Source: Acidobacteriota bacterium (GTDB taxonomy: Bacteria > Acidobacteriota > Vicinamibacteria > Fen-336). Taken from it: 64,000 nucleotides of DNA. The stretch covers positions 3,019 to 67,018 of the forward strand of contig WYBL01000116.1 in NCBI GenBank assembly GCA_011526565.1, written 5' to 3'. Shown one piece after another: positions 3,354 through 51,707 of the stretch. Both the position numbers and the translations under genes were made by a program. The notes beneath the pieces were generated by a model. That model was given only the letters and a program-made list of their open reading frames with translations, did not search any database and had not been told where the DNA came from. Position 1 is the stretch's first letter. Every line of letters starts with the position of its first letter.

Positions 3354-5744
3354 ATGAATCGCCCCCTCGCCCTGCTGACGGCCGTGCTGGCCGCCCTCCT
3401 CCCCGCCAGCGGGATCCTGGCACAGTCCACGGGCTCGGTCTCGGGCCGGGTCGTCGACGAGACCGGCGCGGTGCTCCCCTACGCCCGGGTCACCGTGCGG
3501 CTCGCCGCGCTCGGGTTCGAGAAGAGCGCGACGACCGACGAGGCCGGGCAGTTCCGGCTCGAGCTGCCCGCAGGCGCCTACGAGGTGACCGCGGAGATCG
3601 ACGGCTTCTCGCTGTCGCGCAAGAAGGTCGAGGTCGGCAGCCGGCCCGCCGAGGTGCGCTTCACGCTGCACCCCGGCGGCTTCGACGAAGAAATGACCGT
3701 GGTCGGCGCCAGCATCCTCGGCGGCCCCGAGACCGTGCGCCGGATACCGGGGTCGATCGAGGTGCTGCCGCCCGAGTTGCTCGAGTCGGCCCGCGTGCGC
3801 GACGTCTCCGAGGCGCTGCGCAAGGCCAGCGGCGTCACCGTGCGCGACGAGGAGGGCTTCGCGCTGCGGCCCAACATCGGCATCCGCGGCCTCAACCCGA
3901 CGCGCTCGACCAAGACGCTGCTGCTCGAGGACGGGTTGCCGCTGTCCTACGCGCCGTACGGCGACAACTCGAGCTACTACCACCCGCCGATCGAGCGCTT
4001 CGAAAGCGTGGAGATCCTGAAGGGCGCGGGGCAGATCAGCTACGGTCCCGTCACGGTCGGCGGGGTCGTCAACTACCTGACCCCCGAGCCGCCCCGCGAC
4101 CTGCGGGCCACCGCCCGCGTCACCGCCGGCAACCGCGACTACCTGAACGCCCACGCCAGTGCGGGCGGCACCTTCGGCCGCGCCGGACTGCTGCTCGACG
4201 TGATGCGCAAGGGCGGCGACGGCTCCCGCGACGCCGTCCACTCCGACCTCACCGACGCCACCTTGAAGGCCGTCTTCGCCCTTTCGACCCGCCACACCGT
4301 GACCCTGAAGGGCAACTTCTACGGCGAGGACTCGCAGGTCACCTACTCCGGTCTCCGGCTCGCGGAGTGGGAGGCCGACCCGCGCCAGAACCCGTTCCTG
4401 AACGACGACTTCACGGGCCGCCGCTTCGGCGTCTCGGCTCGCCACAACGCCCTCGTCGGCAGCGGCCTGCTGCTCTCGACCCAGGCCTACCACTCGACCT
4501 TCAGCCGCGACTGGTGGCGCCAGTCGTCGAACTCCGGGCAGCGCCCCAACGACGCGTCCGACCCGAACTGCCGCGGCATGGCCAACCTGCTGACCACCTG
4601 CGGCAACGAGGGCCGGCTGCGCGACTACGACACCACCGGCATCGAGACGCGGCTGCGTTTCGGCCACGGCCTGTTCGGCGCTCGCGGCGAGGCGGAGGTC
4701 GGCCTGCGCGCCCACTTCGAGGTGCAGGAGCGGATCCAGAAGAACGGCGACACGCCGACCGCCCGCGACGGCCGCGTCGTCGAGGACAACCGCCGCGAGA
4801 ACTCCGCCTGGTCCGGCTTCCTCCAGGAGCGCATCCTGCTGGGCCGCTTCACCGTCACGCCCGGCCTGCGCTTCGAGGCGATCGACTACGAGCGCACCAA
4901 CCGACTCGCCAACGGCGGCGCCGGCGCCACCGGCAGCACCTCGCTCACGCAGTGGGTGCCGGGCCTCGGCGTGGCGTGGAACGTCGACGACCGCTTCGCG
5001 CTGTTCGGCGGAGCGCACCGCGGCTTCGCCCCGCCGCGCACCGAGGACATCGTCAGCAACGCCGGCGGCACGGTCGACCTCGACCCCGAGCTGTCCTGGA
5101 ACTTCGAACTCGGCCTGCGTGGCGCGCCGCGCCCCGGCGTGCGCTTCGACGCCACCTGGTTCCGCATGGACTACGAGAACCAGATCGTGCCGGCCAGCCT
5201 CGCGGGAGGCCTCGGCGCCGCGCTGACCAACGGCGGCGCGACGCTGCACCAGGGCTTCGAGGTGGGCGCGCGGGTCGACAGCGGCACCCTGACGGGCAGC
5301 GAGCACAACGTCTTCGCCCGGCTCGCCTACACCGCCGTGCCGACGGCCCGCTTCGAGGGCGAGCGTTTCAGCAACGTGCCCGGTTTCGCGACCACCCGCG
5401 TCACCGGCAACCGCCTGCCCTACTCCCCCGAGCACGCGCTCAACGCGATGGTCGGCTACCGCCACCCGCGCGGCGTGCAGGCCCAGCTCGAGGCGGTGGT
5501 GACGAGCGCCCAGTTCGCCGACGACCTCAATACCGTCGCGTCTTCGGCGGACGGCCAGCGCGGCCGCATCGACGGCCACACGATCTGGAACGCGACGCTC
5601 TCGTACGACGTCAAGGCGCTCGACGGCAGCCTGTTCGTGGCCGTCAAGAACCTGACCGACGAGCTCTACCTCGCCGACCGCAGCCGCGGCATGCTGCCCG
5701 GCCTGCCGCGCCTCGTGCAGGCGGGCTTCGTCGCCCGTTTCTAG
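3354..5744 (+). CDS. TonB-dependent outer-membrane receptor with N-terminal carboxypeptidase-regulatory-like domain
   Basis: Signal peptide MNRPLALLTAVLAALLPASGILAQS; CarboxypepD_reg-like SGRVVDETGAVLPYARVTV...TTDEAGQFRLELPAGAYEV; plug (GSIEVLPPELLESAR, GVTVRDEEG...RPNIGIRGL); C-terminal beta-barrel ending ...QAGFVARF. Confidence 0.85.
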   Translation: MNRPLALLTAVLAALLPASGILAQSTGSVSGRVVDETGAVLPYARVTVRLAALGFEKSATTDEAGQFRLELPAGAYEVTAEIDGFSLSRKKVEVGSRPAEVRFTLHPGGFDEEMTVVGASILGGPETVRRIPGSIEVLPPELLESARVRDVSEALRKASGVTVRDEEGFALRPNIGIRGLNPTRSTKTLLLEDGLPLSYAPYGDNSSYYHPPIERFESVEILKGAGQISYGPVTVGGVVNYLTPEPPRDLRATARVTAGNRDYLNAHASAGGTFGRAGLLLDVMRKGGDGSRDAVHSDLTDATLKAVFALSTRHTVTLKGNFYGEDSQVTYSGLRLAEWEADPRQNPFLNDDFTGRRFGVSARHNALVGSGLLLSTQAYHSTFSRDWWRQSSNSGQRPNDASDPNCRGMANLLTTCGNEGRLRDYDTTGIETRLRFGHGLFGARGEAEVGLRAHFEVQERIQKNGDTPTARDGRVVEDNRRENSAWSGFLQERILLGRFTVTPGLRFEAIDYERTNRLANGGAGATGSTSLTQWVPGLGVAWNVDDRFALFGGAHRGFAPPRTEDIVSNAGGTVDLDPELSWNFELGLRGAPRPGVRFDATWFRMDYENQIVPASLAGGLGAALTNGGATLHQGFEVGARVDSGTLTGSEHNVFARLAYTAVPTARFEGERFSNVPGFATTRVTGNRLPYSPEHALNAMVGYRHPRGVQAQLEAVVTSAQFADDLNTVASSADGQRGRIDGHTIWNATLSYDVKALDGSLFVAVKNLTDELYLADRSRGMLPGLPRLVQAGFVARF

Positions 5745-5762
5745 GCGAAGATCCGCGGCGCC

Positions 5763-6644
5763 ATGAAGCTCGTCCGCCTCGCCTCCCTCGTCGCCCTCGC
5801 CGGCGCCCTGCCGCTCGCCGGCGGGGGCTCGCTGCACGCCTCCGAGAAGCTCGTCGTCGCCCTCAAGCCGGACAAGAACCCGGAGCAGATGCTGGCCGAG
5901 CGCCGCGCGCTCGCCGACTACCTGCAGGGCGCGCTGGGGCGCCCTGCCGAGGTGATCGTGCCGCTGTCGGCGGCGGTGATCCTCGAGGGGCTCGCCAACG
6001 GCACGCTGGACCTCGCCTACCTCTCGGCCTCGGACATGCTCAACGCGCGCCGCGCTCGGATCGCGGACGTGCTGCTGGCCGGCGAGATCGGCGGCCGGCC
6101 CGAGTACCGCAGCTACTGGGTGGCGCTCGCCGACAAGCCGTTCGCGAGGGTCGACGACCTGCGCGGCCGCCGCGTCGCGTTCTCCTCGCGCACCTCGACC
6201 TCGGGCTACGTGATCCCCCACGCCGACCTGGTCCGCAAGGGGCTGCTCGAGGCCGGTGCGTCACCCGAGGAGTTCTTCGGCGCCGGCAACGCCTGGTACG
6301 GCAGCGGCTACGTCTCCGCCGTGGAGCGCGTGCTCTCGGGCGAGGCCGAGGCGGCGGCGATCAGCTACTACGTGCTCGACGAGGACAAGCACCTGAACCT
6401 GGAGCAGCGCCGGCGCCTGAAGAAGGTGGCGGAGCAGAGCCCGGTGCCGACCCACGTGCTGGCCGTGCGGCGCACGCTGCCCGGCGCGCCGCGCGAGGCC
6501 CTGCGCCGCGCACTGCTGGCGCTGAACGAGCCGGCCCGCGCCGCGCTGCGCGACAAGGTGTTCACGTCGAAGCTGGTCGCCGTCGACGAGGCGAAGCACC
6601 TGGCGCCGCTCGAAGAGGCCCAGCGGCTGATCGGCGCCCGGTAG
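5763..6644 (+). CDS. phnD: PhnD-like periplasmic substrate-binding protein (phosphonate/phosphite/phosphate ABC family)
   Basis: Signal peptide MKLVRLASLVALAGALPLAGGGSLHA; LVVALKPDKNPEQ..., SGYVIPH motif typical of PhnD family; followed by PhnC/PhnE. Confidence 0.7.
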   Translation: MKLVRLASLVALAGALPLAGGGSLHASEKLVVALKPDKNPEQMLAERRALADYLQGALGRPAEVIVPLSAAVILEGLANGTLDLAYLSASDMLNARRARIADVLLAGEIGGRPEYRSYWVALADKPFARVDDLRGRRVAFSSRTSTSGYVIPHADLVRKGLLEAGASPEEFFGAGNAWYGSGYVSAVERVLSGEAEAAAISYYVLDEDKHLNLEQRRRLKKVAEQSPVPTHVLAVRRTLPGAPREALRRALLALNEPARAALRDKVFTSKLVAVDEAKHLAPLEEAQRLIGAR

Positions 6645-37524: not shown

Positions 37525-37540
37525 TTGACTTTTTAGTCCA
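37525..37540. promoter_or_regulatory. TTGACT-tttt-AGTCCA inverted repeat upstream of sufB resembling IscR type-1 site core (YYGACT-RWWWY-AGTCRR)
   Basis: 64 bp upstream of sufB ATG; Rrf2 regulator encoded at operon end. Confidence 0.4.
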
Positions 37541-37603
37541 GATTGCCGATTCTTGGGTCTGCGCCCTCCCCGAGCGCGGCATCGGAAGGACTTCCCGCCC
37601 GCC

Positions 37604-39043
<1,440 letters not shown>

Positions 39044-39065
39044 CGGCAACAGGAATCGAAGAGAG

Positions 39066-39832
<767 letters not shown>

Positions 39833-39836
<4 letters not shown>

Positions 39837-41253
39837 GCACGGTGGAACCGGCCGCGCCGGACGCGACCACCCCGGCTCCGGCCCCCGCGGCCGCGCCGAG
39901 CGCTGTCGAGGTGCGCGAGACCCAGCGCGAGGCTTCACGGCGCGACGAAATCGCACCCTGGCTCGTGGCGCTCGAGGCGCTGCGCCGAAAGGGAGAGCCG
40001 GAGTGGCTGGCCGCGCAGCGCGACGACGCCACGGCCCGCTTCGCGCGCCTCGGCTTCCCCACCACCCGCGACGAGGCCTGGCGCCAGACCAGCGTCGCGG
40101 CGCTGGCGCGCACCCGCTTCGACAACGCGACCCGCGGCGCGCTCGACGACGCGCTCGAATCGATGCCCGCGTTCCGCTTCGGCGGAGCGTTCGCCGGCCG
40201 CGAGGCGGTGTTCGTCAACGGCCGCTTCATGCCCGAGCTCTCCAGCCTCGGCAAGCTGGCCCGGGTGCGGGTGCGACCGCTGCGCCAGGTGCTCGCGGAC
40301 GACCCCGACGCGCTGTGCGGCCTGATCGGCGCGGCGGCCGACGACGACAAGCACCCGTTCCTGGCCCTGAACCTCGCCGCCTTCCAGGACGGCGCGGTGG
40401 TCGAGGTGCCCGAGCGATACACGGTCCACGGCCCGATCCACCTGCTCTTCATCAGCACCGGCGGCGCGGCCAGCCATCCGCGGGTGCTGATCGGCCTCAA
40501 CCGCAACTCCCAGGCGACGGTCGTCGAGAGCTACGTCAGCCCGCGCGGCGCCCACTCGTTCTGCAACGCGGCCACCGAGGTGCTGCTCGGCGACGGCGCC
40601 GTGCTCGACCACGTGCGGCTGCAGGCGGAGTCGGAGAAGGCCTACCACGTCGCCACCACCGCGACCCGGGTCAGCCGCAGCGCCACCTACCGCAGCCACG
40701 CGCTGACGCTGGGTGCGGCTCTCTCCCGCCACGACCTCGGCGTGCGGCTCGAGGGCGAAGGCGCCGACGTCGAACTGCACGGCCTGTTCGTCTCCGACGA
40801 CGCCCAGCTCCACGACACCCACTCGAAGCTCGACCACGTCGCCCCGCACGGCACCTCGCGCGAGGTCTACAAGGGCGTGCTCGGCGGCCGCGCTCGCGGC
40901 GTCAAGAACGGGCTGATCGTGGTGCGCCCCGGCGCCCAGAAGACCGACGCCCAGCAACAGAGCCGCAACCTGCTGCTCTCGCGCGAGGCGCTGGTCCACG
41001 CCACGCCGCAGCTCCTGATCCACGCCGACGACGTCAAGTGCAAGCACGGCGCGACCACGGGCCAGATCGAGGACGCGCCGCTGTTCTACCTGCGGTCGCG
41101 CGGCCTCGACGAGGAGGCGGCCCGCGCGCTGCTGGTGTGGGCGTTCGCGGCCGACGTGGTGTCGAAGCTGAAGGTGGCGCCGGTCCGCGAGTCGGTCGAG
41201 CGCTTCCTGCGCGAGCGGCTGCCGGCGGCCGGCGCGGTGCCCGGGACCCGCGC

Positions 41254-41257
<4 letters not shown>
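39833..41257 (+). CDS. sufD: Fe-S cluster assembly protein SufD
   Basis: ATG overlaps sufC stop (ATGA); SufB/D-family C-terminal beta-helix region; position after sufC. Confidence 0.85.
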
Positions 41258-42506
<1,249 letters not shown>

Positions 42507-42507
<1 letters not shown>

Positions 42508-42965
42508 TGTCCGACCTGCGCGAGCTGTACCAGGAGGTCATCCTGGACCACACGAAGAAGCCGCGCAACAAGCGGCCGATGCCCGATGCCACCGGCCACA
42601 GCGACGGCATGAACCCGCTGTGCGGCGACAAGGCGACGGTGTACGTGAAGGTCGAGGACGGGCGCGTCGTCGACGTCTCGTTCGAGGGCCAGGGCTGCTC
42701 GATCTCGACCGCCTCGGCCTCGATGATGACCGAGGCGGTGCGCGGCAAGACGCCCGCCGAGGTCGACGCGCTGTTCGAGCGCTTCCACGCCCTCGTCACA
42801 GCCCCGCCCGACCAGGCGGGCCGCGACGCCGCTCCCGAGCTCGGCAAGCTGGCCGTGTTCGCGGGCGTGTGCGAGTTCCCCGTGCGCGTGAAGTGCGCGT
42901 CGCTCGCGTGGCACACGCTGAAGGCCGCGCTCGCCGGCAACGGCACGCCGGTCAGCACCGAGTAG
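42507..42965 (+). CDS. sufU: SufU/IscU-like Zn-dependent sulfur-transfer scaffold
   Basis: Three conserved Cys (NPLCGD, GQGCSIS, KCASLA); 1-nt overlap with sufS stop. Confidence 0.8.
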
Positions 42966-42975
42966 GAGCCCCATC

Positions 42976-43518
42976 ATGATGAGACAGGCCAAGACGCTGT
43001 CCCGCGACATCGAGGCGACGGCGATCCCCTACGGCGACAAGATCCCGCTCAAGGCGGGCGCGATGGTCTACATCACCCAGGCCCTCGGTGGCACCTGGAC
43101 CGCGATGACCGACCACGGCTACATGGTGCGCATCGAGGCCACCGACGCCGACGCCATCGGCGAGAAGGCCGACCAGGGCCCGAGCCCCGAGGACCTCGCC
43201 AGCAAGCCGCTCGACCAGCTCTGCTGGGACCAGCTCAAGACCTGCTTCGACCCCGAGATCCCGGTCAACATCGTCGACCTCGGCCTCGTCTACGAGTGCG
43301 TGATCAGCGACCGGCCCGAGGGCGGCAAGAAGGTGGCGATCCGCTTCACGCTGACCGCCCCCGGCTGCGGCATGGGCGACTACCTGAAGGCCGACATCGA
43401 GCGCAAGATCGCGAGCATCCCCGGCGTCGACGAGTTCGACGTGCAGCTCGCCTTCGAGCCCCAGTGGAACCAGGCCATGATGAGCGACGCCGCGCGGCTG
43501 CAGCTCGGCCTGATGTGA
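42976..43518 (+). CDS. sufT: SufT/DUF59 (MIP18-family) Fe-S assembly protein
   Basis: DUF59-like LKTCFDPEIPVNIVDLGLVY...TAPGCGMGDYL. Confidence 0.7.
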   Translation: MMRQAKTLSRDIEATAIPYGDKIPLKAGAMVYITQALGGTWTAMTDHGYMVRIEATDADAIGEKADQGPSPEDLASKPLDQLCWDQLKTCFDPEIPVNIVDLGLVYECVISDRPEGGKKVAIRFTLTAPGCGMGDYLKADIERKIASIPGVDEFDVQLAFEPQWNQAMMSDAARLQLGLM

Positions 43519-43537
43519 GGGGCGCGAGGCCCGCCGC

Positions 43538-43990
43538 TTGAAGCTCTCGTCCCAGGAGGAGTACGGCCTGCGCTGCCTGCTCCAGCTCGCCCGCGCGGGC
43601 GACGCCGCCAGCCTGACCATCGCGGAGCTGAGCAAGCGCGAGGGCCTGTCGGCCCCCAACGTCGCCAAGATGCTGCGCCTGCTGCGCCGCTCCGGCTTCG
43701 TGCGTGCCACCCGCGGCCAGCAGGGCGGCTACGCCCTCGCCCGCCCCGCGGCGACGATCAGCGTCGGCGAAGCCCTCTCCGCCCTCGGCGGCCGCATCTT
43801 CGACGAAGGCTTCTGCGACCGCCACGCGGGCGCCGAAGCCTCCTGCGCCCACCTCGACGGCTGCTCGATCAAGCCCGTCCTGCAGCGCCTCCAGGAAGTC
43901 GTCGACTCGGTCCTCGGCCACATGACCCTGTCCGAGCTGCTGAGCCCGCAGGCCCCCCTGATCCGTCTCCAGTCCCGAAGACCGGCCTGA
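43538..43990 (+). CDS. Rrf2-family transcriptional regulator (IscR/SufR-like, 3-Cys cluster ligands)
   Basis: Rrf2 HTH (MKLSSQEEYGLRCLLQLA...LTIAELSKREGLSAPNVAKMLRLLRRSGFV); C-x9-C-x5-C (CDRHAGAEASCAHLDGC). TTG start. Confidence 0.75.
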   Translation: MKLSSQEEYGLRCLLQLARAGDAASLTIAELSKREGLSAPNVAKMLRLLRRSGFVRATRGQQGGYALARPAATISVGEALSALGGRIFDEGFCDRHAGAEASCAHLDGCSIKPVLQRLQEVVDSVLGHMTLSELLSPQAPLIRLQSRRPA

Positions 43991-44002
43991 AACGTCCGGC
44001 CC

Positions 44003-44428
44003 TCAGCACCACTTGAAGAAGGGCACGATCGGGCCGCGCCGGGCACCGAGCCAGAACCCGCAGTCGACTTCCATCGACGCCACCTTCGCGTCTCGCAACT
44101 CGATCTCGGAGTGACCGGCGGCGTCCGCCAGGGCGCGAGCGAGACGCCCGAGCATCACGGCGCGGGACCGGACGTTGGCTCGGGCCTTCTTCCAGTCCTG
44201 GCCGATGGCGTGCTCGGCGAAGAAGAACGTCCTCGTGTAGTGCCCGATCCACCAGCCCCGGGCGTCGTCTCCGATAGGGAACGCCTGCTTGCTGCCCGGC
44301 TTCTTGCCGACGCCTCTGCCGACCATCGGTAGCACGTCGGCCTCGAAGCGCGCCTTCATGCGCTGGGTCTCGACGCTCGGGTCAATCGTGATCGTACCCA
44401 TATCACCCTCCACGGTGGTCCTGTCCAC
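44003..44428 (-). CDS. Hypothetical protein (no recognisable family)
   Basis: Protein-like composition; convergent with Rrf2 gene; possible alternative start 44401. Confidence 0.35.
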   Translation of the reverse strand: MDRTTVEGDMGTITIDPSVETQRMKARFEADVLPMVGRGVGKKPGSKQAFPIGDDARGWWIGHYTRTFFFAEHAIGQDWKKARANVRSRAVMLGRLARALADAAGHSEIELRDAKVASMEVDCGFWLGARRGPIVPFFKWC

Positions 44429-44461
44429 AAGAACGGCAGCCCGGCGCGATACGAACGACGG

Positions 44462-47047
44462 TCAATGCCAGAGCGCCTTGGCGAAACCGCGGGCGTCCCT
44501 AACGGACCGCCGGCCCGGCACCGCGGCAAGAGCGCCCCGAAGAAGACTCGCGAGCCACTCCGGTGTGCGGCTGGCGTCCAGGCGTGCGGGAGAGCCCTGG
44601 CGGACCGTGCGCAGCGTGATCTCCTCGGTAGCCCCCTGGAATGGATGGCTCCCTGCAATCGCCTCGTAGATCACGACCGCCAGCGCCCAGACGTCCCACT
44701 CGGGCGAAGGCGCCACGCCCTCCCAGGCTTCCGGCGGAAGGTAGCGGGGAGTGCCTGCGACACAACCTTCCTGGTCCGCAGACAGCTCCATGAGGTGCGC
44801 GAGGCCGAAATCCAGGAGCTTGGGCGGGCCGGCAACCTGGAATCCGACATTCCCCGGCTTGATGTCACGGTGGAGCAGGCCCTCATCGTGGAGGTCGGCG
44901 AGCGTCGTGGCCAGGGCGCGGCCGAGGCTGAGGCTGGCTTCCAGACCCAGCGGGCCCCGCGTCAGGCGGTCCGCGAGCGTCTCGCCCGCGAGGTACTCCA
45001 CGACCAAGAACGGCACGCCCTTCCAGGTTTCTGCCCCGAACAGGGTCGCCACGCCGGGGTGGTTGATCGACGCCATCACGCGCGCCTCGGATCGCAGCCG
45101 TGCCGCCAGTGCCGGGGACGATCGCGGGAGCGTCTTCAGGGCCACGGTGCGCCCGAGAGTCGTGTCTTCTGCCTCGTAGACGACGCCCATGCCACCCTGA
45201 CCGACGCGCCGAACCAGCCGGAACTTGCCCAGCGCGATGCGCGGCAAGGCCGCCTGCCGACTTCGATCGGCGCCGCACTCGCAGCGCGGTTCGGAGTGAG
45301 CGCGAACTCGCGTGCAGGCGTCGCATTCCAGACCCGGCTCGTCGTCCCACTCCCCGCCCTCGGCGGCGCCCGGCTGCGGCACGCGAGCGATCGCGATTCC
45401 CGCAGCGGACGCGAGACTGTGAGCGAGTTCCTGCGCTCCGCGGTCCCAAGGCTCCTCGGACACGCGTTCGCCGAGGGCCAGGATGGCCGCCGGCTGTCCC
45501 GTGCTGCCCATCACGGGAACGACCAAGGTCACGCCGAGGTCGCTGCTCCATGCACGGTCGTCGTCAGGGAGCAAGGCCAGGAGGCGCGGTGTGATCTCCA
45601 GCGGGCGCGGGTCGGCGTCGAGCATCGCCACGATCGCGCTGCTCGCACTGAGTGGCCGGCAGGCGGAATCGCCCCCAGCGAACGTGCCGCTCGAGTTCCT
45701 CGTCAGAACGCGAACCTGGGTCGCCCCCAACGACATCCTCACCTCGCCTGTGAGGGCCGCCGCGACGTCGCGCTGACCCCGGGCCGCGCTCAGCGCGGTC
45801 AGCAGGCGTTGCAGCCCCGCGCCGCGGTCTCCATCGCCACGCGAGAACAGCCGATCGAGCCCGGCCTGGATCGGCCTGCGAAGCACCCGCAGGACTGTCG
45901 AGAGCGCGAGGGCCGCCAGCAGGCCCTTGCCCGGCCCCGCTCCGAGCAACTCGGCGAGCGGTCGATGGCGCTCGGCGAACAGGTATAGGGCCAACAGCAG
46001 GGCTGGCAGGAACACCAGCAAGTGAAGCGTCGTGCGGGCCAGTGCATGAGAGAGCGCACGCCGCGCCAGGAGGCGGAGGCCGAGGACGCGGCCCGCCGCT
46101 ACGGCTGCAGCGGTCGTCACGGGCAGCGACAGGAGGCCTCCATAGACGATGGTGTCCGTGGCGGCCTCGTACCGATCGACCCAGCGCTCCGCACCCGGCA
46201 CCAGGACCGAAACCAGCGTCAGGAGTACGAGCGGCGCTAGGCCGACGAAGACGGCCACGACGAAGCCGGCCACCCGACGCCCCTCGTCGCCGCTGGCAAG
46301 CCGCGCCTTGCGCAGGGCCAGACGAGCTCCGAGGGCCATGACCGAGAACTGCGCGGCCCAGAACAAGCGACCGCGGCCGTCACCGCCGTCGCGGCCGACG
46401 ACGATCAGCGCCTCACCCAGCGGGCTACCCGAGGCCAGCACTGCAACCGGGGTCACCAGGAAGAGGAACAGACCCAGGGCCGCTGCCGCCTTCTCCAACC
46501 GGACCAGCCCAACCTGTGCCGGCAGGTGGGCTGGCGCGGCGGGGAATCGCAGCAGGAGCGCGAGGAAGGTCGCCGCGAGGAATGCGTCGGGCTGCAGGCC
46601 CGCAAGGAGCGATACGCCGCTGGCCGCGCCCGAAGTGGCGGCGGCGATCGGCCTCGTGGCGAACGTCGCCGCCACGACGACGTAGAAGACGCCGAGACGG
46701 ATCGCGCGAGGGTCGCGGTCTCCGGAGTAGAGGAGCGCGGCACCGGAAAAGCCGAAAACCAGGAGTGGTCCGATGAGTCCGAAGTCCGAGTTCGCGATCG
46801 CCAGCCCGAGCCCTGACAAAGCGCGCGTCGCAGCGAGTAGGCAGAGCAGGCGGAACCCGAGGGACAACGGGTCCGAGACCGAGGCGCTCGCCACCCTGGC
46901 TCGCGCCCGGACGTTTTCGGCAACCGCCTCGAGTACGGTCGCGGTTCGCGACGGCAGCGCGACTCCGCGGTAGGCATCGCGCCAGTCCAGCGGTGCGCCA
47001 TCGGCCGCCGCCGCGGCGAGCCGCACGAGCGCGCCCTCAGGCTCCAT
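44462..47047 (-). CDS. Polytopic membrane Ser/Thr protein kinase (N-terminal cytoplasmic segment + ~10 TM + GAF-like region + Hanks-type kinase)
   Basis: Kinase motifs GQGGMGVVY (Gly loop), VALKTL (VAIK), HRDIKPGNV (catalytic loop), DFGLA (DFG), TPRYLPPE (APE); start overlaps ECF sigma gene end. Confidence 0.75.
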   Translation of the reverse strand: MEPEGALVRLAAAAADGAPLDWRDAYRGVALPSRTATVLEAVAENVRARARVASASVSDPLSLGFRLLCLLAATRALSGLGLAIANSDFGLIGPLLVFGFSGAALLYSGDRDPRAIRLGVFYVVVAATFATRPIAAATSGAASGVSLLAGLQPDAFLAATFLALLLRFPAAPAHLPAQVGLVRLEKAAAALGLFLFLVTPVAVLASGSPLGEALIVVGRDGGDGRGRLFWAAQFSVMALGARLALRKARLASGDEGRRVAGFVVAVFVGLAPLVLLTLVSVLVPGAERWVDRYEAATDTIVYGGLLSLPVTTAAAVAAGRVLGLRLLARRALSHALARTTLHLLVFLPALLLALYLFAERHRPLAELLGAGPGKGLLAALALSTVLRVLRRPIQAGLDRLFSRGDGDRGAGLQRLLTALSAARGQRDVAAALTGEVRMSLGATQVRVLTRNSSGTFAGGDSACRPLSASSAIVAMLDADPRPLEITPRLLALLPDDDRAWSSDLGVTLVVPVMGSTGQPAAILALGERVSEEPWDRGAQELAHSLASAAGIAIARVPQPGAAEGGEWDDEPGLECDACTRVRAHSEPRCECGADRSRQAALPRIALGKFRLVRRVGQGGMGVVYEAEDTTLGRTVALKTLPRSSPALAARLRSEARVMASINHPGVATLFGAETWKGVPFLVVEYLAGETLADRLTRGPLGLEASLSLGRALATTLADLHDEGLLHRDIKPGNVGFQVAGPPKLLDFGLAHLMELSADQEGCVAGTPRYLPPEAWEGVAPSPEWDVWALAVVIYEAIAGSHPFQGATEEITLRTVRQGSPARLDASRTPEWLASLLRGALAAVPGRRSVRDARGFAKALWH

Positions 47048-47717
47048 CGCCCATCGCCTTCGCAAGCTTGGCGAGCGCGCGCGCCACGACCATCCGGGCC
47101 GAGTCCGAAGAGGGCTTGCCCAGTGCCAGCGCGATCTGCTCGTAGCTGTATCCCATCTCGACCCGGGCGACGACCGCCTGCTGCTCGGGAGCCGGCAACT
47201 CGGCCAGGGCGGCCTGGTAGCGGCCCCGAAGTTCGGCGTCGGCGAAGAGGGAGTCCGGCCCTGGCTCCCGGCTCGCCATCTCGTCGCCGATCTCGTCGAC
47301 AGGCGGCCGGCGCGCGGCCCGACGGACGTGGTCGCGAACCCGGTTGACGACGGCCGTGCGGAGGTACGCCCCCAGCGCGCCGCGTCGGCGCGCGTCGAAG
47401 CGATCGAGATTCCGGACGGCCCCGATCAGCGTCTCCTGGACGATGTCTGCGGTGTCGCCCAGCGCGCGCGCCCACCCCGGCAGCCGCCCGCGGGCGAACC
47501 GGAGCAGCCCGGGCATCTCCCGCTCCAGCAGCCGCTCGAGGGCGGAGCGATTCCCGCGCCGCGCCAGGCTGAGCAGGCGCACGGTGGTCGGGGCCGGGGA
47601 GAGAGGGGCCTCGGTCAAGGGATCACGACTCCGCACAGTGACTTCCCAGATTCTGACGACGGAGTGTACATGCACCCGGCGTGCTGTTCGGAACTCCGGT
47701 GAGGGACGTTGTTCCAT
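47037..47717 (-). CDS. ECF (sigma-70 family, group IV) RNA polymerase sigma factor; start codon uncertain (47642-47717)
   Basis: Region 2 DIVQETLIGAVRNLDRFD, region 4 HTH LPAPEQQAVVARVEMGYSYEQIALALGKPSSDSARMVVARALAKL. Confidence 0.7.
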   Translation of the reverse strand: MEQRPSPEFRTARRVHVHSVVRIWEVTVRSRDPLTEAPLSPAPTTVRLLSLARRGNRSALERLLEREMPGLLRFARGRLPGWARALGDTADIVQETLIGAVRNLDRFDARRRGALGAYLRTAVVNRVRDHVRRAARRPPVDEIGDEMASREPGPDSLFADAELRGRYQAALAELPAPEQQAVVARVEMGYSYEQIALALGKPSSDSARMVVARALAKLAKAMGDGA

Positions 47718-47756
47718 TCAAGTTCCCCGTTCGCGCCGTGGACAAGGAGGCGTGCC

Positions 47757-48809
47757 ATGCCGACCGTCAGTTGGCTCACGAAGATCACGGACTTCGTCAA
47801 CCTCGGGAAGATCCTGGTCGACGCGGGTCCCGGCTTCATTCTGGCCCTGGCGCTCTACGTCGGCCTTGGGACGGCCCTCAACCTCCCCCTCATTCCTGTG
47901 CACGGCCATGACGCGGTCGAGAGCCGCCTTGCCGGCGAGCTCGAGAAGCGGAGGCAGGAGGAGGAGGGGCTCGAAGGCCAGGCCCTGCACGCCGAGCAGG
48001 GCCGGGAGGCCGCAGCCGCGGCGGTGAGCGGGGCCGAGGCAGCGCTGACTCGCGCGAAAGCGTCGCCCCTGGGGGGAAAGGCCGAGAGGCGGCTCGTGGT
48101 CGAGCTCCAACGGCTGCAGGGAGACCTGAGGGAGAAGCAACGTAGCGCGAAGGCCGCCGAGCGGAAGCTGCGACAGGGCAGCGAAGCCGTCGCTGAAGCC
48201 AAGGCGGCCCTCGCCGACGCGAAGAAGGCACAGGTGACGAGCGTCGCCGATCTGCTCTCGAGGGTGCTCGAGCACCTGGTCGCACTCGGCCTCGTGGGCT
48301 ACGTTCTCGGCACCCTGCTCAGCCCCGTCAATCGTTGGGTCTTTCTCGACACGATGGGGTCCGATCCCGCCAGCAACGGACTCGATGGCCGACCCTCTTC
48401 CTACTTCGTCGGAAAGGGGGTGGTGTCGCAGACCGAACTCGATGGCCTGGTGACTTCCTACTACCGGTTCGCCGAAGCGAGCGCCAACATGATCCTCCCG
48501 ATCCTGGCGCTTGCCCTCGCGGTCGGCATCGAACGCCGGAGTTCGGTGGCTTCGACTCCCTGGACCTCAGGCGCCGCGGCGCTGCTCGTCTTGGCGTTCG
48601 TTGTGTTCCTGGCCGTCACAGGCCGGCGCCGCTACCGCGACTACAAGACCCGCGTCCACTCGTTCATCACGGGGCGGCTCGAGAAGGTCCAGGCGGCGGA
48701 CGACGATCGCCGGCAGGGGCTGGAGAAGGCCAGGACGCTCGAACAGGTCGTCAAGCTCGCCGAGGAGCTGCTCAAGAAGACGGCCAAGCCCGGGAGCCCA
48801 ACCGCGTGA
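47757..48809 (+). CDS. Membrane protein with long coiled-coil and 4 TM segments, function unknown
   Basis: Strong RBS AAGGAGG 8 nt upstream; TM FILALALYVGLGTAL; coiled-coil rich in E/K/R/A; C-terminal TMs. Confidence 0.6.
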   Translation: MPTVSWLTKITDFVNLGKILVDAGPGFILALALYVGLGTALNLPLIPVHGHDAVESRLAGELEKRRQEEEGLEGQALHAEQGREAAAAAVSGAEAALTRAKASPLGGKAERRLVVELQRLQGDLREKQRSAKAAERKLRQGSEAVAEAKAALADAKKAQVTSVADLLSRVLEHLVALGLVGYVLGTLLSPVNRWVFLDTMGSDPASNGLDGRPSSYFVGKGVVSQTELDGLVTSYYRFAEASANMILPILALALAVGIERRSSVASTPWTSGAAALLVLAFVVFLAVTGRRRYRDYKTRVHSFITGRLEKVQAADDDRRQGLEKARTLEQVVKLAEELLKKTAKPGSPTA

Positions 48810-49837
48810 TTCTCCTGTTCACCCTGGCGCAGCGCCTTCGACAGCGGTACGGCGAGGCCCACTGGGACCGCCTGCGGGCCTCGTTGGTCGACCTCGCCGA
48901 CGCCTACACCCTGACTCACGGGGCCGCAGCGCTGTGCCTGCCCGACGAGTTCTGGCCTCCAGGCTCGGACGCCAACGCCGTCGAGCTGATCCGTTCCGAG
49001 CTGGAGGCGCGGGCCCCGATCGAAGCGCTCGTGATCATCGGCGGCGACTCCGTAGTCCCGTTCGGGAGGGCGCCCAATCCCGTCGCCGATCGCGTCGCCG
49101 ATCCTGATTCCCTGGTCCTCAGCGACGCGGTCTACGGATCACCGTGGAGTCTTGCAGGAGCCCGCGTGCCCGTGGCGAGAATCCCCGACAGCGACCCGCC
49201 AGAACTGGGTGAACTGCTGTCGCTCCTCGAGGCGGCCCGGCCGGATTCCCGTGGCTCGTCTCGACGGGGCGCATTCGCGGTCGCGAATCCGGAGTGGGAA
49301 GCAGCGACCTGGAGGGCGCTCAAGGGTCACCGGCCGACCGTGCGAGTCGCTCCCCACTGGCACGGCGGTGATCCGGAGTGGCCATCCAACGACGCCGCCC
49401 TCCTCTACTTCAACCTCCACGGGTTCGCTCGACGACCCGAGTGGTTCGGATTCCACGACCGCAGCGGATGGACTCCCGTGCTGCGGCCCGGGAACATCCA
49501 ACGCGAGGCGGTCGCGGGCGCGATCGTCTTCGTGGAGAACTGCTACGGCGGCAACACCGTCGGCCGGTCACGACGCTCCAGCATCTCGCTGGCCCTGCTC
49601 GCCTGTGGCGCGCGGGCGATCATCGCCACCGCAGGCCTGGCGTTCGGAAGCCACCTGCCTTCCATGGAGCACAACGCCGACGCGCTGGCCAGCGCGACAC
49701 TCTCCGCCCTTTCCACTGGCGCCTCGGTTGGCGCAGCGCTGGACCGGGCGCGGCAAGCTCTGCCGGGCGACGACGCGTTCGCAGCCAAGACCCGATCCCA
49801 ATTCCTGATCTTCGGCGATCCCCTCGCCACCCTCTGA
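48806..49837 (+). CDS. Putative clan-CD (caspase/CHAT/gingipain-like) cysteine-peptidase-fold protein
   Basis: GTG overlaps upstream stop (GTGA); His-Gly (ALLYFNLHGF) followed ~45 aa later by hydrophobic strand + Cys (GAIVFVENCYGG): His/Cys dyad spacing typical of clan CD. Weak call. Confidence 0.5.
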   Translation: MILLFTLAQRLRQRYGEAHWDRLRASLVDLADAYTLTHGAAALCLPDEFWPPGSDANAVELIRSELEARAPIEALVIIGGDSVVPFGRAPNPVADRVADPDSLVLSDAVYGSPWSLAGARVPVARIPDSDPPELGELLSLLEAARPDSRGSSRRGAFAVANPEWEAATWRALKGHRPTVRVAPHWHGGDPEWPSNDAALLYFNLHGFARRPEWFGFHDRSGWTPVLRPGNIQREAVAGAIVFVENCYGGNTVGRSRRSSISLALLACGARAIIATAGLAFGSHLPSMEHNADALASATLSALSTGASVGAALDRARQALPGDDAFAAKTRSQFLIFGDPLATL

Positions 49838-49850
49838 TCGGAGACTCGCG

Positions 49851-51707
49851 ATGAGACTGGAATACGTGCTCGCCCTGACCCTCGGAGTCGCTCCGGGCGC
49901 CGCAGCCGAGTCCAACGACCGAAAGGCAAGCCAGTACGTCGTCTTCGACGCTCGGTCCGGCGGCAAGGGGCTTCACCGGTGTGTCGGCAGCCCGGGTGCG
50001 GACTGCCGCGCGCCGAAGACCGACTTCTTCGACAGCCAGGACATCGTCCTGTTCCAGCTCGTCGGCGCTCCCTGCAACACCCGATGGACGTTTCAGCTCG
50101 GCGACGTGGCCGTCCCGGAACCCGAGCCGGGGATACGCGGCCTGGGCGACATGCCATCGCTGGCCAAGGCTCTTGCCGGACCGCCACCGGCGCACGGTTC
50201 TGATGCTCCAGCAGCGCAAGCGGCCGACTCGTGGTCCATCGAAGACATCCTCGGTCGGCTCGTCTCCCGGGAAGGGATCCAGGGCCTCCGGCTCGACATC
50301 GAGGGAGAGAAAGCCAGGCTCGAATCTGAGATCAGGAACCTGGCTGCCGCCGTCGCCGCGTACGAGTACGACGTCCGCATCTTCCTCGCCGACGCCGCGG
50401 TCGAGAACGCGGTTGCCGCGGTTCGCGCGGTCGAGGATGCGGCCGGCAAGCCTCCTGCGGCGGGATGCTCCGGCGCGTACCAGTTGCGCGAAGCTGCGGA
50501 GATGGCCGAGGCGGAACTCTCCCGTGTGGAGGCAAACATCACAACCTCAGGCTTGGGGAGCAAGGCCAGCACTCTGCGGGAGCGGCTGCGCGTGCTCGGA
50601 GCCGAGATTGGCCTTCACGCAGCCCGGGTGGACAGGGCACGCGCCGCGGTCGAGATCGCCCGCTCGGGCCTTGGCTGGGAATGCGAAGCCGCGCCGCAGA
50701 CCACGTCGGCCACCGAATGCGACGCTCCTGTCGAGGTGGGCCTGGAACGCTTGAAGCGAGCGGTGGCCGCCTACGGTGCGACCGCTACGGGCGAGGCTCT
50801 GCGCCGGATATACGACCACTACGAGACGGAGAGGCCTCGCGTCCGATACGCCCTTATGCAAGACCTCGCCGAGCTCGGGGTCGCGCTTTCGAGCACGGCC
50901 GTCGATGGCCAGTTGGGCGCGCAGCGGGATAGCGTTCGTCGCTCCTCGGCATCGCTCGAGACGTGGGGGGCTGGGGCCGACGACCGCCTCCGCGACATGC
51001 GGAAGGCGCTCCGACGCCACTTCGCCGATTCCACCTACGCCTCGACCGTCGACGTGCGCCCTCGATTCACGGGGAACACCGTCCTGAGTCTCAAGGTGCG
51101 GCGCCAGGTATTCGATCCGCTCGCGCCGCCGGCCACCGAGCCTCCCGCCGCCGTCGAAGTGGCGAGTGCATCCTACGAGGTGCACAAGCGGTACCTCTTC
51201 AACGTCGGCGGCGGATTCATGATCAGCGGCATCGGGAACAGGGAATACGCCGTCCGGCAGTATCGACGCCTGGATGCCGACGGGCAGCCCGTCTCCGACG
51301 ACGACGGACCAATCTTCGACAAGAAGCTCGTCGAGTCGGGCTCGGATGACCGGTCGCAGGATTTCGCCCTGACCTTCACCGCCTACCTTCCGCGCCGTCT
51401 CGACACTTTCCACGCGTCGGCGGCGCGCCGACCCACGACTGGGTTGATGGTGGGCTTCTCACTCGAGAAGCCCACGGACAACCTGTACGCGGGCCTCGTT
51501 CTTCAGCCGACCCTGGGCATCCAACTGACGGCCGGGGTTCACTTCGGAAAGCGCTCGGCCCCACAGGATGGCATCGTCCCCGAGGTCACCGTGCTCCCGG
51601 CCGACACGACAGCGCCGCCGATACGAGACGAGTGGGCGAGGGCGCTCTTCTTCAGTATCGGGTTCGACGCCAGCGTGTTCTCGCGGTTGTTCGGGTCGTC
51701 CGAGTAG
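49851..51707 (+). CDS. Secreted hypothetical protein with central coiled coil
   Basis: Signal peptide MRLEYVLALTLGVAPGAAAES; 13 bp after previous gene. Confidence 0.6.
   Translation: MRLEYVLALTLGVAPGAAAESNDRKASQYVVFDARSGGKGLHRCVGSPGADCRAPKTDFFDSQDIVLFQLVGAPCNTRWTFQLGDVAVPEPEPGIRGLGDMPSLAKALAGPPPAHGSDAPAAQAADSWSIEDILGRLVSREGIQGLRLDIEGEKARLESEIRNLAAAVAAYEYDVRIFLADAAVENAVAAVRAVEDAAGKPPAAGCSGAYQLREAAEMAEAELSRVEANITTSGLGSKASTLRERLRVLGAEIGLHAARVDRARAAVEIARSGLGWECEAAPQTTSATECDAPVEVGLERLKRAVAAYGATATGEALRRIYDHYETERPRVRYALMQDLAELGVALSSTAVDGQLGAQRDSVRRSSASLETWGAGADDRLRDMRKALRRHFADSTYASTVDVRPRFTGNTVLSLKVRRQVFDPLAPPATEPPAAVEVASASYEVHKRYLFNVGGGFMISGIGNREYAVRQYRRLDADGQPVSDDDGPIFDKKLVESGSDDRSQDFALTFTAYLPRRLDTFHASAARRPTTGLMVGFSLEKPTDNLYAGLVLQPTLGIQLTAGVHFGKRSAPQDGIVPEVTVLPADTTAPPIRDEWARALFFSIGFDASVFSRLFGSSE

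Follow-up and report, generated by a model that had tools for sequence, protein, structure and literature searches.

A probable cognate pair of ECF sigma factor and polytopic Ser/Thr kinase in an Acidobacteriota bacterium, with the kinase N-terminus as candidate sigma-contact element

How might a membrane-bound Ser/Thr kinase control a sigma factor whose gene overlaps its own? The question is raised by a locus in a 64-kb stretch of DNA from an Acidobacteriota bacterium (contig WYBL01000116.1; ~71% G+C over the whole stretch, referred to as the window in the following, whose nearest public matches are metagenome-assembled genomes labelled Vicinamibacteria), where the gene of an extracytoplasmic function (ECF) sigma factor runs directly into that of a Hanks-type kinase. 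Our analysis points to a cognate signalling unit of these two proteins, in which a short N-terminal cytoplasmic segment of the kinase, its head, would be the element that contacts the sigma factor; we give this reading a probability of about 0.6. It concerns the following features, of which the overlap was read from the sequence and the head was delimited with an alignment of partner kinases and a hidden Markov model (HMM):

47037..47618, minus strand: ECF sigma factor gene, 193 aa from TTG 47618, with an alternative start at GTG 47582
47037..47047, minus strand: 11-nt overlap between the sigma stop codon (TGA 47039-47037) and the kinase start codon (ATG 47047)
44462..47047, minus strand: gene of a membrane Hanks-type Ser/Thr kinase of 861 aa, stop codon included, 100% identical to P0001
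46874..47047, minus strand: N-terminal cytoplasmic head of the kinase, residues 1-58, whose sequence ends VLEAVAENVRARA

The overlapping genes and their conservation

A single message encodes both proteins, and the stop of the sigma gene overlaps the start of the kinase gene. Read on the minus strand, the last sigma codons are GCG ATG GGC GAT GGA GCC TGA, and the junction sequence is ATGGAGCCTGA; the first-pass annotation had rightly placed the sigma stop inside the first codons of the kinase gene (start 47047). The 11-nt overlap is the same in three orthologous loci (L088, L089, L090), and overlaps of 4, 8, 11 or 14 nt between sigma and kinase genes recur throughout the family.

A scan for relatives of the sigma factor, with one genome per species, found 281 places, of which the best 80 loci were analysed. 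Nearly all of these 80 belong to Vicinamibacterales or other Acidobacteriota, and the sigma family is widespread in Vicinamibacteria. A kinase domain begins on the same strand about 200-250 nt past the sigma gene in 62 of the 80 loci, and the kinase frame opens before the sigma stop codon, mostly by 11 or 14 nt, at 59 of the 65 junctions that could be scored, a count in which the choice of start codon somewhat favours overlaps. The kinase is in this respect the conserved partner that it had been proposed to be. In the 22.6-kb L001 locus, which flanks the kinase gene by about 10 kb to either side, none of the called genes was recorded with an anti-sigma Pfam domain. Sixteen sigma relatives, mostly Luteitalea-like, are without a kinase and are for the most part followed by a UbiD-family gene. 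In the kinase-less clade formed by L020, L022-L026, L030, L036, L037, L051, L066, L073 and L079, region 2.2 of the sigma factor reads ETED and the next gene encodes a UbiD-family decarboxylase.

That the upstream protein is an ECF sigma factor, as annotated, is clear from its domains. Pfam Sigma70_r2 (47 bits) and Sigma70_r4_2 both match, and NCBIfam TIGR02937, the ECF profile, exceeds its cut-off of 42.9 with 75.4 bits; with sigma2 and sigma4 as its only domains and the ECF profile matched, the protein belongs to the ECF (group 4) sigma-70 factors. Among proteins of solved structure its nearest relatives are SigE, RpoE and CnrH, all of them ECF sigma factors. The annotated start at ATG 47717, which gives a protein of 226 aa, is unlikely, because the homologues are 181-220 aa long, because the upstream frame is not conserved (frame-breaking indels in the orthologous DNA leave the additional 33 codons out of frame in the orthologous loci), and because the extension crosses a conserved promoter of the opposite strand, the divergent promoter described below. 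We place the true start about 100 nt downstream, at what is likely TTG 47618 or else GTG 47582. Gene callers, on public contigs carrying an identical kinase, give a sigma factor of 193 aa, a kinase of 861 aa and the same overlap.

Region 2.2 of the window sigma factor reads DTADIVQE and aligns with the DAED of M. tuberculosis SigE, and DT[DEA]D is found at this place in 69 of 72 kinase-linked relatives. Judged from these alignments, the sigma factor keeps the acidic core-binding motif of region 2.2. The Thr of DTxD is invariant, equally so in the 16 kinase-less relatives with their ETED, and Thr55 in this motif was dropped as a candidate phosphosite because the kinase-less clade retains it too.

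The kinase head and the two partner architectures

Most kinases that partner this sigma family share a canonical layout, with about 70 residues followed by the kinase domain, one transmembrane (TM) helix and a periplasmic TolB-like/TPR or PD40 (β-propeller) region. The window kinase belongs to a smaller set with an inverted layout (the orthologues P0002-P0005 and L008; further L005, L076 and L083, and fragments such as P0272), in which the head is followed by about ten TM helices, a GAF-like domain, a Cys4 ribbon and a C-terminal kinase domain. Whereas the canonical partners carry the kinase domain at the N-terminal side, and theirs is only ~35% identical to that of the window protein, the two layouts have in common the head, the junction with the sigma gene and the promoter motif of the family.

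In an alignment of the window protein with the partner kinases, the head common to both architectures extends over about 55 residues, with the consensus LxxLAxxVADGxxVDWxxAE...RxLIRxLRxVxxVAxLHRS. An HMM built from canonical partners only was run against 9375 six-frame open reading frames (ORFs) of the related loci and matched inverted kinases in L076 (1e-10), L083 (2e-9), L005 (5e-7) and the window (2.3e-4), as well as in L008, L090 and L089. Among these ORFs, matches were confined to the one after the sigma gene, in 66 loci, and 13 other kinase ORFs of the same loci did not contain the head. By these profile comparisons, the window head shares its ancestry with the N-terminal heads on canonical partner kinases of this sigma family, and other kinases are without it.

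To cover a wider set of proteins, we compared a profile of the head with 1.84 billion representative proteins. The profile is weak, so that the resulting at least 94 matches at E ≤ 0.001 are a lower bound; the great majority lie within the first ~65 residues. The 27 sequences inspected among them were mostly kinases or truncated or frameshifted fragments of kinases, two with a tandem head, and the other short matches inspected were fragments of the inverted type, apart from a few that are hard to classify (P0297, P0308). Two N-terminal heads in tandem are seen in the kinases L067 (6575-7000) and P0243. At E ≤ 10, no Pfam family matched the head in the window kinase or in four canonical heads, and the window head segment contains neither HxxxCxxC nor another Cys/His motif. 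The idea that the N-terminal segment is anti-sigma-like stands insofar as it is a conserved module specific to the kinases of this sigma family, but not in the sense of a match to a known anti-sigma domain.

A second sigma family illustrates this specificity. The kinase P0010 has the TM, GAF, ribbon and kinase core of the window protein, with a PDZ-like insert, and follows a PF07638 sigma factor whose region 2.2, HTLQPTALVNE, has the uncharged motif of the ECF43 type. Its head differs from that of the window family and reads RVEELFxAALE...FLxxAC..DPxLxxEVExLL. P0015 has the same alternative head and overlaps its own QPTA sigma gene by 4 nt. Such pairs of QPTA sigma factor and alternative-head kinase, P0010 being one of the kinases, occur in Acidobacteriota-type contigs (L006 1071-4764; L092 1424-4923, with a 4-nt overlap). 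In turn, P0069, a kinase with the head of the window family, again follows a sigma factor of the window family, with an overlap of 14 nt. The pairings of P0010, P0015 and P0069 indicate that the head tracks the sigma family and not the rest of the kinase.

Beyond the head, the window kinase comprises four parts:

45842..46861, minus strand: polytopic membrane region of ~10 TM helices, residues 63-402, the presumed sensor (hydropathy; AlphaFold models)
45383..45826, minus strand: GAF-like cytoplasmic domain, residues 408-555 (Pfam score below cut-off; relative P0010; fold in the model)
45254..45331, minus strand: Cys4 ribbon, residues 573-598, ECDAC...CECG (alignment A5; relatives; β-strands in the model)
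44465..45235, minus strand: Hanks-type kinase domain, residues 605-861 (Pkinase match; catalytic motifs)

The hydrophilic N-terminal segment ahead of the first hydrophobic helix spans ~58-62 residues, and Pfam Pkinase matches residues 616-853 with E = 4.7e-37. The catalytic motifs are complete (GQGGMG at 616, VALK at 635, HRDIKPGN at 726, DFG at 746, PPE at 771), which provides the P-loop, the lysine of the VAIK type, the HRDxKxxN loop, the DFG and the APE-type motif of a Hanks-type Ser/Thr kinase. An N-terminal segment of ~60 residues, about ten TM helices and a complete Hanks domain had all been described from the sequence, and all three hold. For the GAF-like region the picture is mixed: the window protein reaches only 19.0 bits against the Pfam GAF cut-off of 22.4, but more distant relatives score 44.9 bits with GAF_2 (P0010) and 22.4 bits with GAF_3 (L076), and residues 408-555 are modelled by AlphaFold as an α/β fold with a predicted local distance difference test (pLDDT) of 74-88. 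The CxxC...CxC ribbon, at residues 574-591, was absent from the first-pass annotation. It is conserved in relatives; C575, C578 and C589 are invariant in alignment A5, and the motif also occurs in P0006, L076, L083, P0008 and P0010. If the number of TM helices is even, as predicted, then head, GAF-like domain and kinase domain would all face the cytoplasm.

The full-length AlphaFold model has moderate confidence (pLDDT 70, predicted TM-score (pTM) 0.38), and the membrane part modelled by itself reaches pLDDT 74 and pTM 0.67. Foldseek searches of the PDB with the modelled TM domain gave no structural relative, only noise resembling G-protein-coupled receptors (E ≥ 0.04, TM-score ≤ 0.4). A word-indexed search with residues 1-600 of the kinase found only 9 proteins. 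PADLOC matches of the kinase (PD-T4-6, mad6, PglW) were set aside, since they cover the kinase domain only. In P0220, a genuine homologue of the TM domain, residues ~33-55 contain the string SSRRRHTRCLSDWSSDVCSSDL, an apparent assembly or translation artefact fused to it.

A family promoter and the genes that it faces

Within 260 nt upstream of the sigma genes of the family, GTTC-N17-CGTT occurs in 35 of 68 regions, as against 0.6 in shuffled sequences. The family consensus is TGTTCGGTT-N13-CGTTA(C/T)A, also written TGTTCGG-N15-CGTTA. Of 59 instances of the motif, 53 have a 17-nt spacing, and in most loci of the family it faces the sigma gene. An ECF promoter motif before its own sigma gene is the usual sign of autoregulation, and because the motif faces sigma genes in this way, we infer that it is the promoter of the window-family sigma factors. 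In L020, L024 and L030, which belong to the kinase-less clade, a variant with 16-nt spacing, GTTCTAC...GGGGCGTTT, lies upstream of the sigma gene.

A position weight matrix (PWM) trained without the window subfamily gave 97 matches scoring at least 15 in the 972 kb of related loci, 57 of which are followed by a sigma gene no more than 330 bp downstream. The 64-kb window contains exactly two matches scoring at least 12; both are intergenic and both abut the sigma-kinase operon. They are listed with the genes that they face:

47685..47712, plus strand: family promoter TGTTCGG-N15-CGTTG (PWM match 47678-47720, score 15.7), facing the divergent operon
44430..44458, minus strand: family promoter CGTTCGT-N15-CGTTC (PWM match 44422-44464, score 16.3), facing the 132-aa gene
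44003..44401, minus strand: conserved gene of 132 aa (WWxxHYTRTFFFA...DCG...FKWC) after the kinase gene, a predicted target of the sigma factor
47757-48809, 48806-49837 and 49851-51707, plus strand: divergent three-gene unit encoding 350, 343 and 618 aa, from gene calls on identical contigs

Since each PWM score by itself is marginal, the case for the two promoters rests on their position. In the divergent promoter, CGTT lies 46 nt before ATG 47757, a distance that, by coordinates, is the same in the orthologues, and a copy with the same position and orientation is present in L008, L083, L088, L089 and L090. The promoter after the kinase gene begins right at the kinase stop codon and recurs at this place in L088 (21.4), L090 (21.3), L076 (17.7) and L083 (16.6); its CGTT lies 30 nt before ATG 44401 in the window, and the distance is 30-31 nt in the window, L088 and L090. 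An ECF-type promoter of the form GGAAC...CGTC had been expected upstream of 47757 and of 57957. Before 47757 a motif of this kind of promoter is indeed present, but it is TGTTCGG-N15-CGTT; GGAAC...CGTC was not found, and what looks like GGAAC near 47700 is the TGTTCGG/CGTT motif read on the opposite strand. Before 57957 the expectation failed, as the best PWM score there is 1.2, compared to 15.7 and 16.3 for the two promoters. A scan of 43900-47900 for sigma-70 promoters and intrinsic terminators found nothing.

In canonical loci the family promoter points toward the sigma gene, whereas in the window subfamily it points outward, and no copy facing the sigma gene was found in the inverted subfamily. 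From the placement of the motif, the pair of the window subfamily does not seem to autoregulate, unlike most of its relatives. The additional small gene is likewise a feature of this subfamily only: the 132-aa gene follows the kinase gene in L001, L008, L076, L088, L089 and L090, is restricted to loci of the inverted subfamily and does not occur in the ~60 canonical loci, while L083 and L005 have a different gene at its position. Its product, with invariant H97, C114 and C132 (in a C-terminal WC), has no match in Pfam, NCBIfam, PADLOC or the PDB. Going by the promoter in front of it, it is a probable direct target of the sigma factor.

The divergent three-gene unit, 47757..51707, is a probable target operon on the same grounds. 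None of its three genes matches Pfam or PADLOC, and the divergent position is variable: it is taken by the hypothetical trio in the window and L090, by a radical-SAM cluster in L088 and by a trypsin-like protein in L089. In the 343-aa protein (48806-49837, plus strand), a His-Gly motif, LYFNLHGF, and a Cys motif, VENCYGG, resemble clan CD (caspase/CHAT-like) peptidases by eye.

Outside the window subfamily, nine canonical loci (L014, L016, L017, L032, L039, L045, L049, L050, L062; positions ~4900-6000) have back-to-back family promoters, the second of which faces a divergent kinase gene without the head. In about 20 canonical loci, family motifs scoring 21-34 are located downstream of the kinase gene, ~1.5-2.5 kb from its end and 4.6-5.7 kb from the sigma start, examples being L015 10647-10689 and L042 9007-9049.

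On its other side, the operon adjoins a complete suf cluster for Fe-S assembly (37529-43990; SufB/D, SufC, SufS, NifU-like, FeS_assembly_P), which includes an Rrf2-family regulator at 43538-43990 and ends 12 nt from the 132-aa gene. L089 resembles the window in that the unit of sigma, kinase and small gene adjoins suf/Rrf2, which is not the case for L088 and L090, and no link between the suf cluster and the sigma system was seen. The pair had been thought to mark a boundary between core and accessory genes, and this has some support from the suf operon with Rrf2 just upstream and from a drop in G+C content at third codon positions at ~44 kb, from about 0.95 to 0.85 (~0.94-0.97 before, ~0.79-0.88 beyond).

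Possible modes of control

Among kinase-linked ECF sigma factors, the mechanism has been worked out only for ECF43, and for the other kinase-linked groups, which keep the acidic patch, reviews describe the control as unknown (PMC8999054). ECF43 members have STTA or QTTA in place of the acidic DAED patch, the part of region 2.2 in contact with the beta-prime subunit, and the charge is restored when the Thr is phosphorylated (PMC8999054, PMC13147305). The window locus resembles the pairs EcfP/PknT of Vibrio parahaemolyticus and EcfK/PknS of Xanthomonas citri in that the sigma gene adjoins the gene of a transmembrane Ser/Thr kinase and a classical anti-sigma gene is absent. PknS, too, has an N-terminal extension, uncharacterised and of 83 aa, before its kinase domain (PMC13147305), and relatives of the window sigma factor weakly match Pfam Sigma70_ECF (PF07638; E ≤ 0.01 for 27 of 32, best 6e-9). 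The window sigma factor itself scores 16.3 bits on this profile, below the cut-off of 21.1. Further, region 2.2 is uncharged in ECF43, with a phospho-acceptor Thr in STTA/QTTA, but DTAD here and DT[DEA]D in the family; the promoter is GTC-Xn-CAG there and TGTTCGG-N15-CGTTA here; ECF43 comes from Proteobacteria and the window from Acidobacteriota; and the head of the window-family kinases is unlike the one seen with QPTA-type sigma factors. Its region 2.2 motif, promoter and taxon led us to reject the window sigma factor as a member of ECF43. As the acidic DAED-type motif is intact, the ECF43 phospho-switch is missing, and the published phosphorylation mechanism, on which the first-pass annotation had drawn, is not simply transferable.

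The 2021 ECF classification lists as kinase-linked, besides ECF43 of Proteobacteria, ECF59, 61, 62 and 217 of Planctomycetes, ECF267 of Sorangium/Chondromyces and ECF283 of Actinobacteria; these six reportedly keep a DAED-like motif, with mechanism unknown, and their kinases include multi-TM forms in ECF59s1 and zinc-finger forms in ECF62 (PMC7826278, PMC8999054). They share with the window locus a kinase gene at position +1 and the lack of an anti-sigma factor, but none is listed for Acidobacteria and none has the promoter motif of the window; a TGTTC/GTTCG promoter appears in no group of the 2021 classification. By comparison with these group descriptions, the locus appears to belong to a large and so far undescribed acidobacterial family of kinase-linked ECF sigma factors of the acidic-patch type.

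The other obvious comparison is with classical membrane anti-sigma factors such as RseA and RsiW, or the short class II proteins NepR and CnrY. As in these, a short cytoplasmic N-terminal element lies directly before the first TM helix, its gene is translationally coupled to the sigma gene, and the sigma factor has an intact core-binding surface that would need a brake. The differences are that the window head has no anti-sigma Pfam match (zf-HC2/ZAS, RskA, RseA, NepR and others) and no HxxxCxxC, that the window protein ends in GAF and kinase domains and its head is not found without a kinase, and that in the canonical partners the head precedes the kinase domain instead of a TM helix.

In the signalling unit that we propose, the head would contact the sigma factor and hold it at the kinase. 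A signal sensed by the membrane region or the GAF-like domain would turn the kinase on, and phosphorylation of the sigma factor, or of the kinase itself, would then free or activate the sigma factor. This would direct RNA polymerase to TGTTCGG-N15-CGTT promoters, in the window those of the divergent operon at 47757 and of the 132-aa gene. The intact DAED motif, together with the widespread autoregulation in the family, suggests that a brake is needed. The head might provide it by sequestering the sigma factor, but a role in docking the kinase's substrate would fit equally well, and docking is favoured by the consistent presence of a kinase wherever the head occurs. We consider only tentatively, as a possible but rather doubtful extension, that the head is an undescribed sigma-binding domain and the kinases are hybrid anti-sigma/kinase regulators that release a competent sigma factor by phosphorylation, each kinase-linked ECF family having a head of its own that determines specificity.

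Several observations weigh against the proposed unit. The match of the window head to the canonical HMM is modest, at E = 2.3e-4, and leans partly on intermediates; the head is short and modelled with low confidence (pLDDT 43-55), and it matches no anti-sigma family in Pfam. The 27 inspected profile matches included no convincing case of a stand-alone head with a TM helix, or of a head on a protein other than a kinase, and this restriction to kinases argues against a generic anti-sigma domain and fits docking as well. Comparison of kinase-linked with kinase-less sequences identified no phospho-acceptor in the sigma factor. The motif was assigned to the sigma factor through the autoregulation argument, and one of 20 shuffles scored 18.7 with the PWM, more than either match in the window.

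The restriction of the head to kinases would also be expected if it were a docking peptide without any sequestering role and control were by phospho-activation as in ECF43, with only the phosphorylated sigma factor being active and the phosphorylated site lying outside region 2.2, in an N-terminal S/T pair or in the linker between sigma2 and sigma4. The ECF43 members EcfP and EcfK are known to be phosphorylated directly, with a second site located in the linker (PMC13147305, PMC8999054), and kinase-linked members of the window family differ from kinase-less ones in having S or T at sigma position 10 (93% against 6%) and at position 178 (64% against 0%). These two positions are, as phosphorylation candidates, a lead only. 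Since the acidic DAED-type motif is intact, the known cause of intrinsic inactivity is missing, and most relatives have the family promoter before their own sigma gene, a positive feedback that normally needs a brake; pure phospho-activation thus appears rather unlikely. The brake might be sought outside the kinase, in the 132-aa protein, which could inhibit the sigma factor or the kinase and, being made from a sigma-dependent promoter, close a negative feedback loop. A family promoter that precedes the start codon of its gene by 30-31 nt, in the window as well as L088 and L090, would suit such a role, and H97, C114 and C132 could bind metal or sense redox. But a protein that is confined to the inverted subfamily, and is replaced there by a different one in L083 and L005, cannot be the general regulator of a family with ~60 canonical loci, and this one has no similarity to anti-sigma families or to solved structures, all of which makes it an improbable inhibitor.

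It is more improbable still that the two genes are merely co-transcribed, with the kinase acting on other substrates and the activity of the sigma factor set by its own amount. Some ECF groups are indeed regulated purely by transcription (PMC8999054), 16 relatives, mostly followed by UbiD, do without a kinase, and no family promoter faces the sigma gene in the inverted subfamily. Such co-transcription leaves unexplained, however, why the kinase was otherwise rebuilt but kept the junction, its overlap and a head peculiar to this sigma family, and why a second sigma family has a head of its own; both are hard to account for without a physical link between sigma factor and kinase. We therefore favour the cognate signalling unit with the head as its sigma-contact element.

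Kinase-linked ECF sigma factors were already known; what the present locus adds is a kinase with a rare inverted layout, together with a head module and a promoter that are both defined. It amounts to a natural experiment in which a whole kinase was rebuilt while head and gene junction were kept, and it offers testable handles in the head that is specific to the sigma family and in a promoter motif with two targets within a few dozen bases of the operon. If the reading of the head as a sigma-binding regulator is true, it would supply the missing mechanism for kinase-associated ECF groups other than ECF43. Should the head bind the sigma factor, Ser/Thr kinase signalling would be linked in a novel manner to the availability of a sigma factor, and the head would aid the annotation of hundreds of genomes of soil Acidobacteriota.

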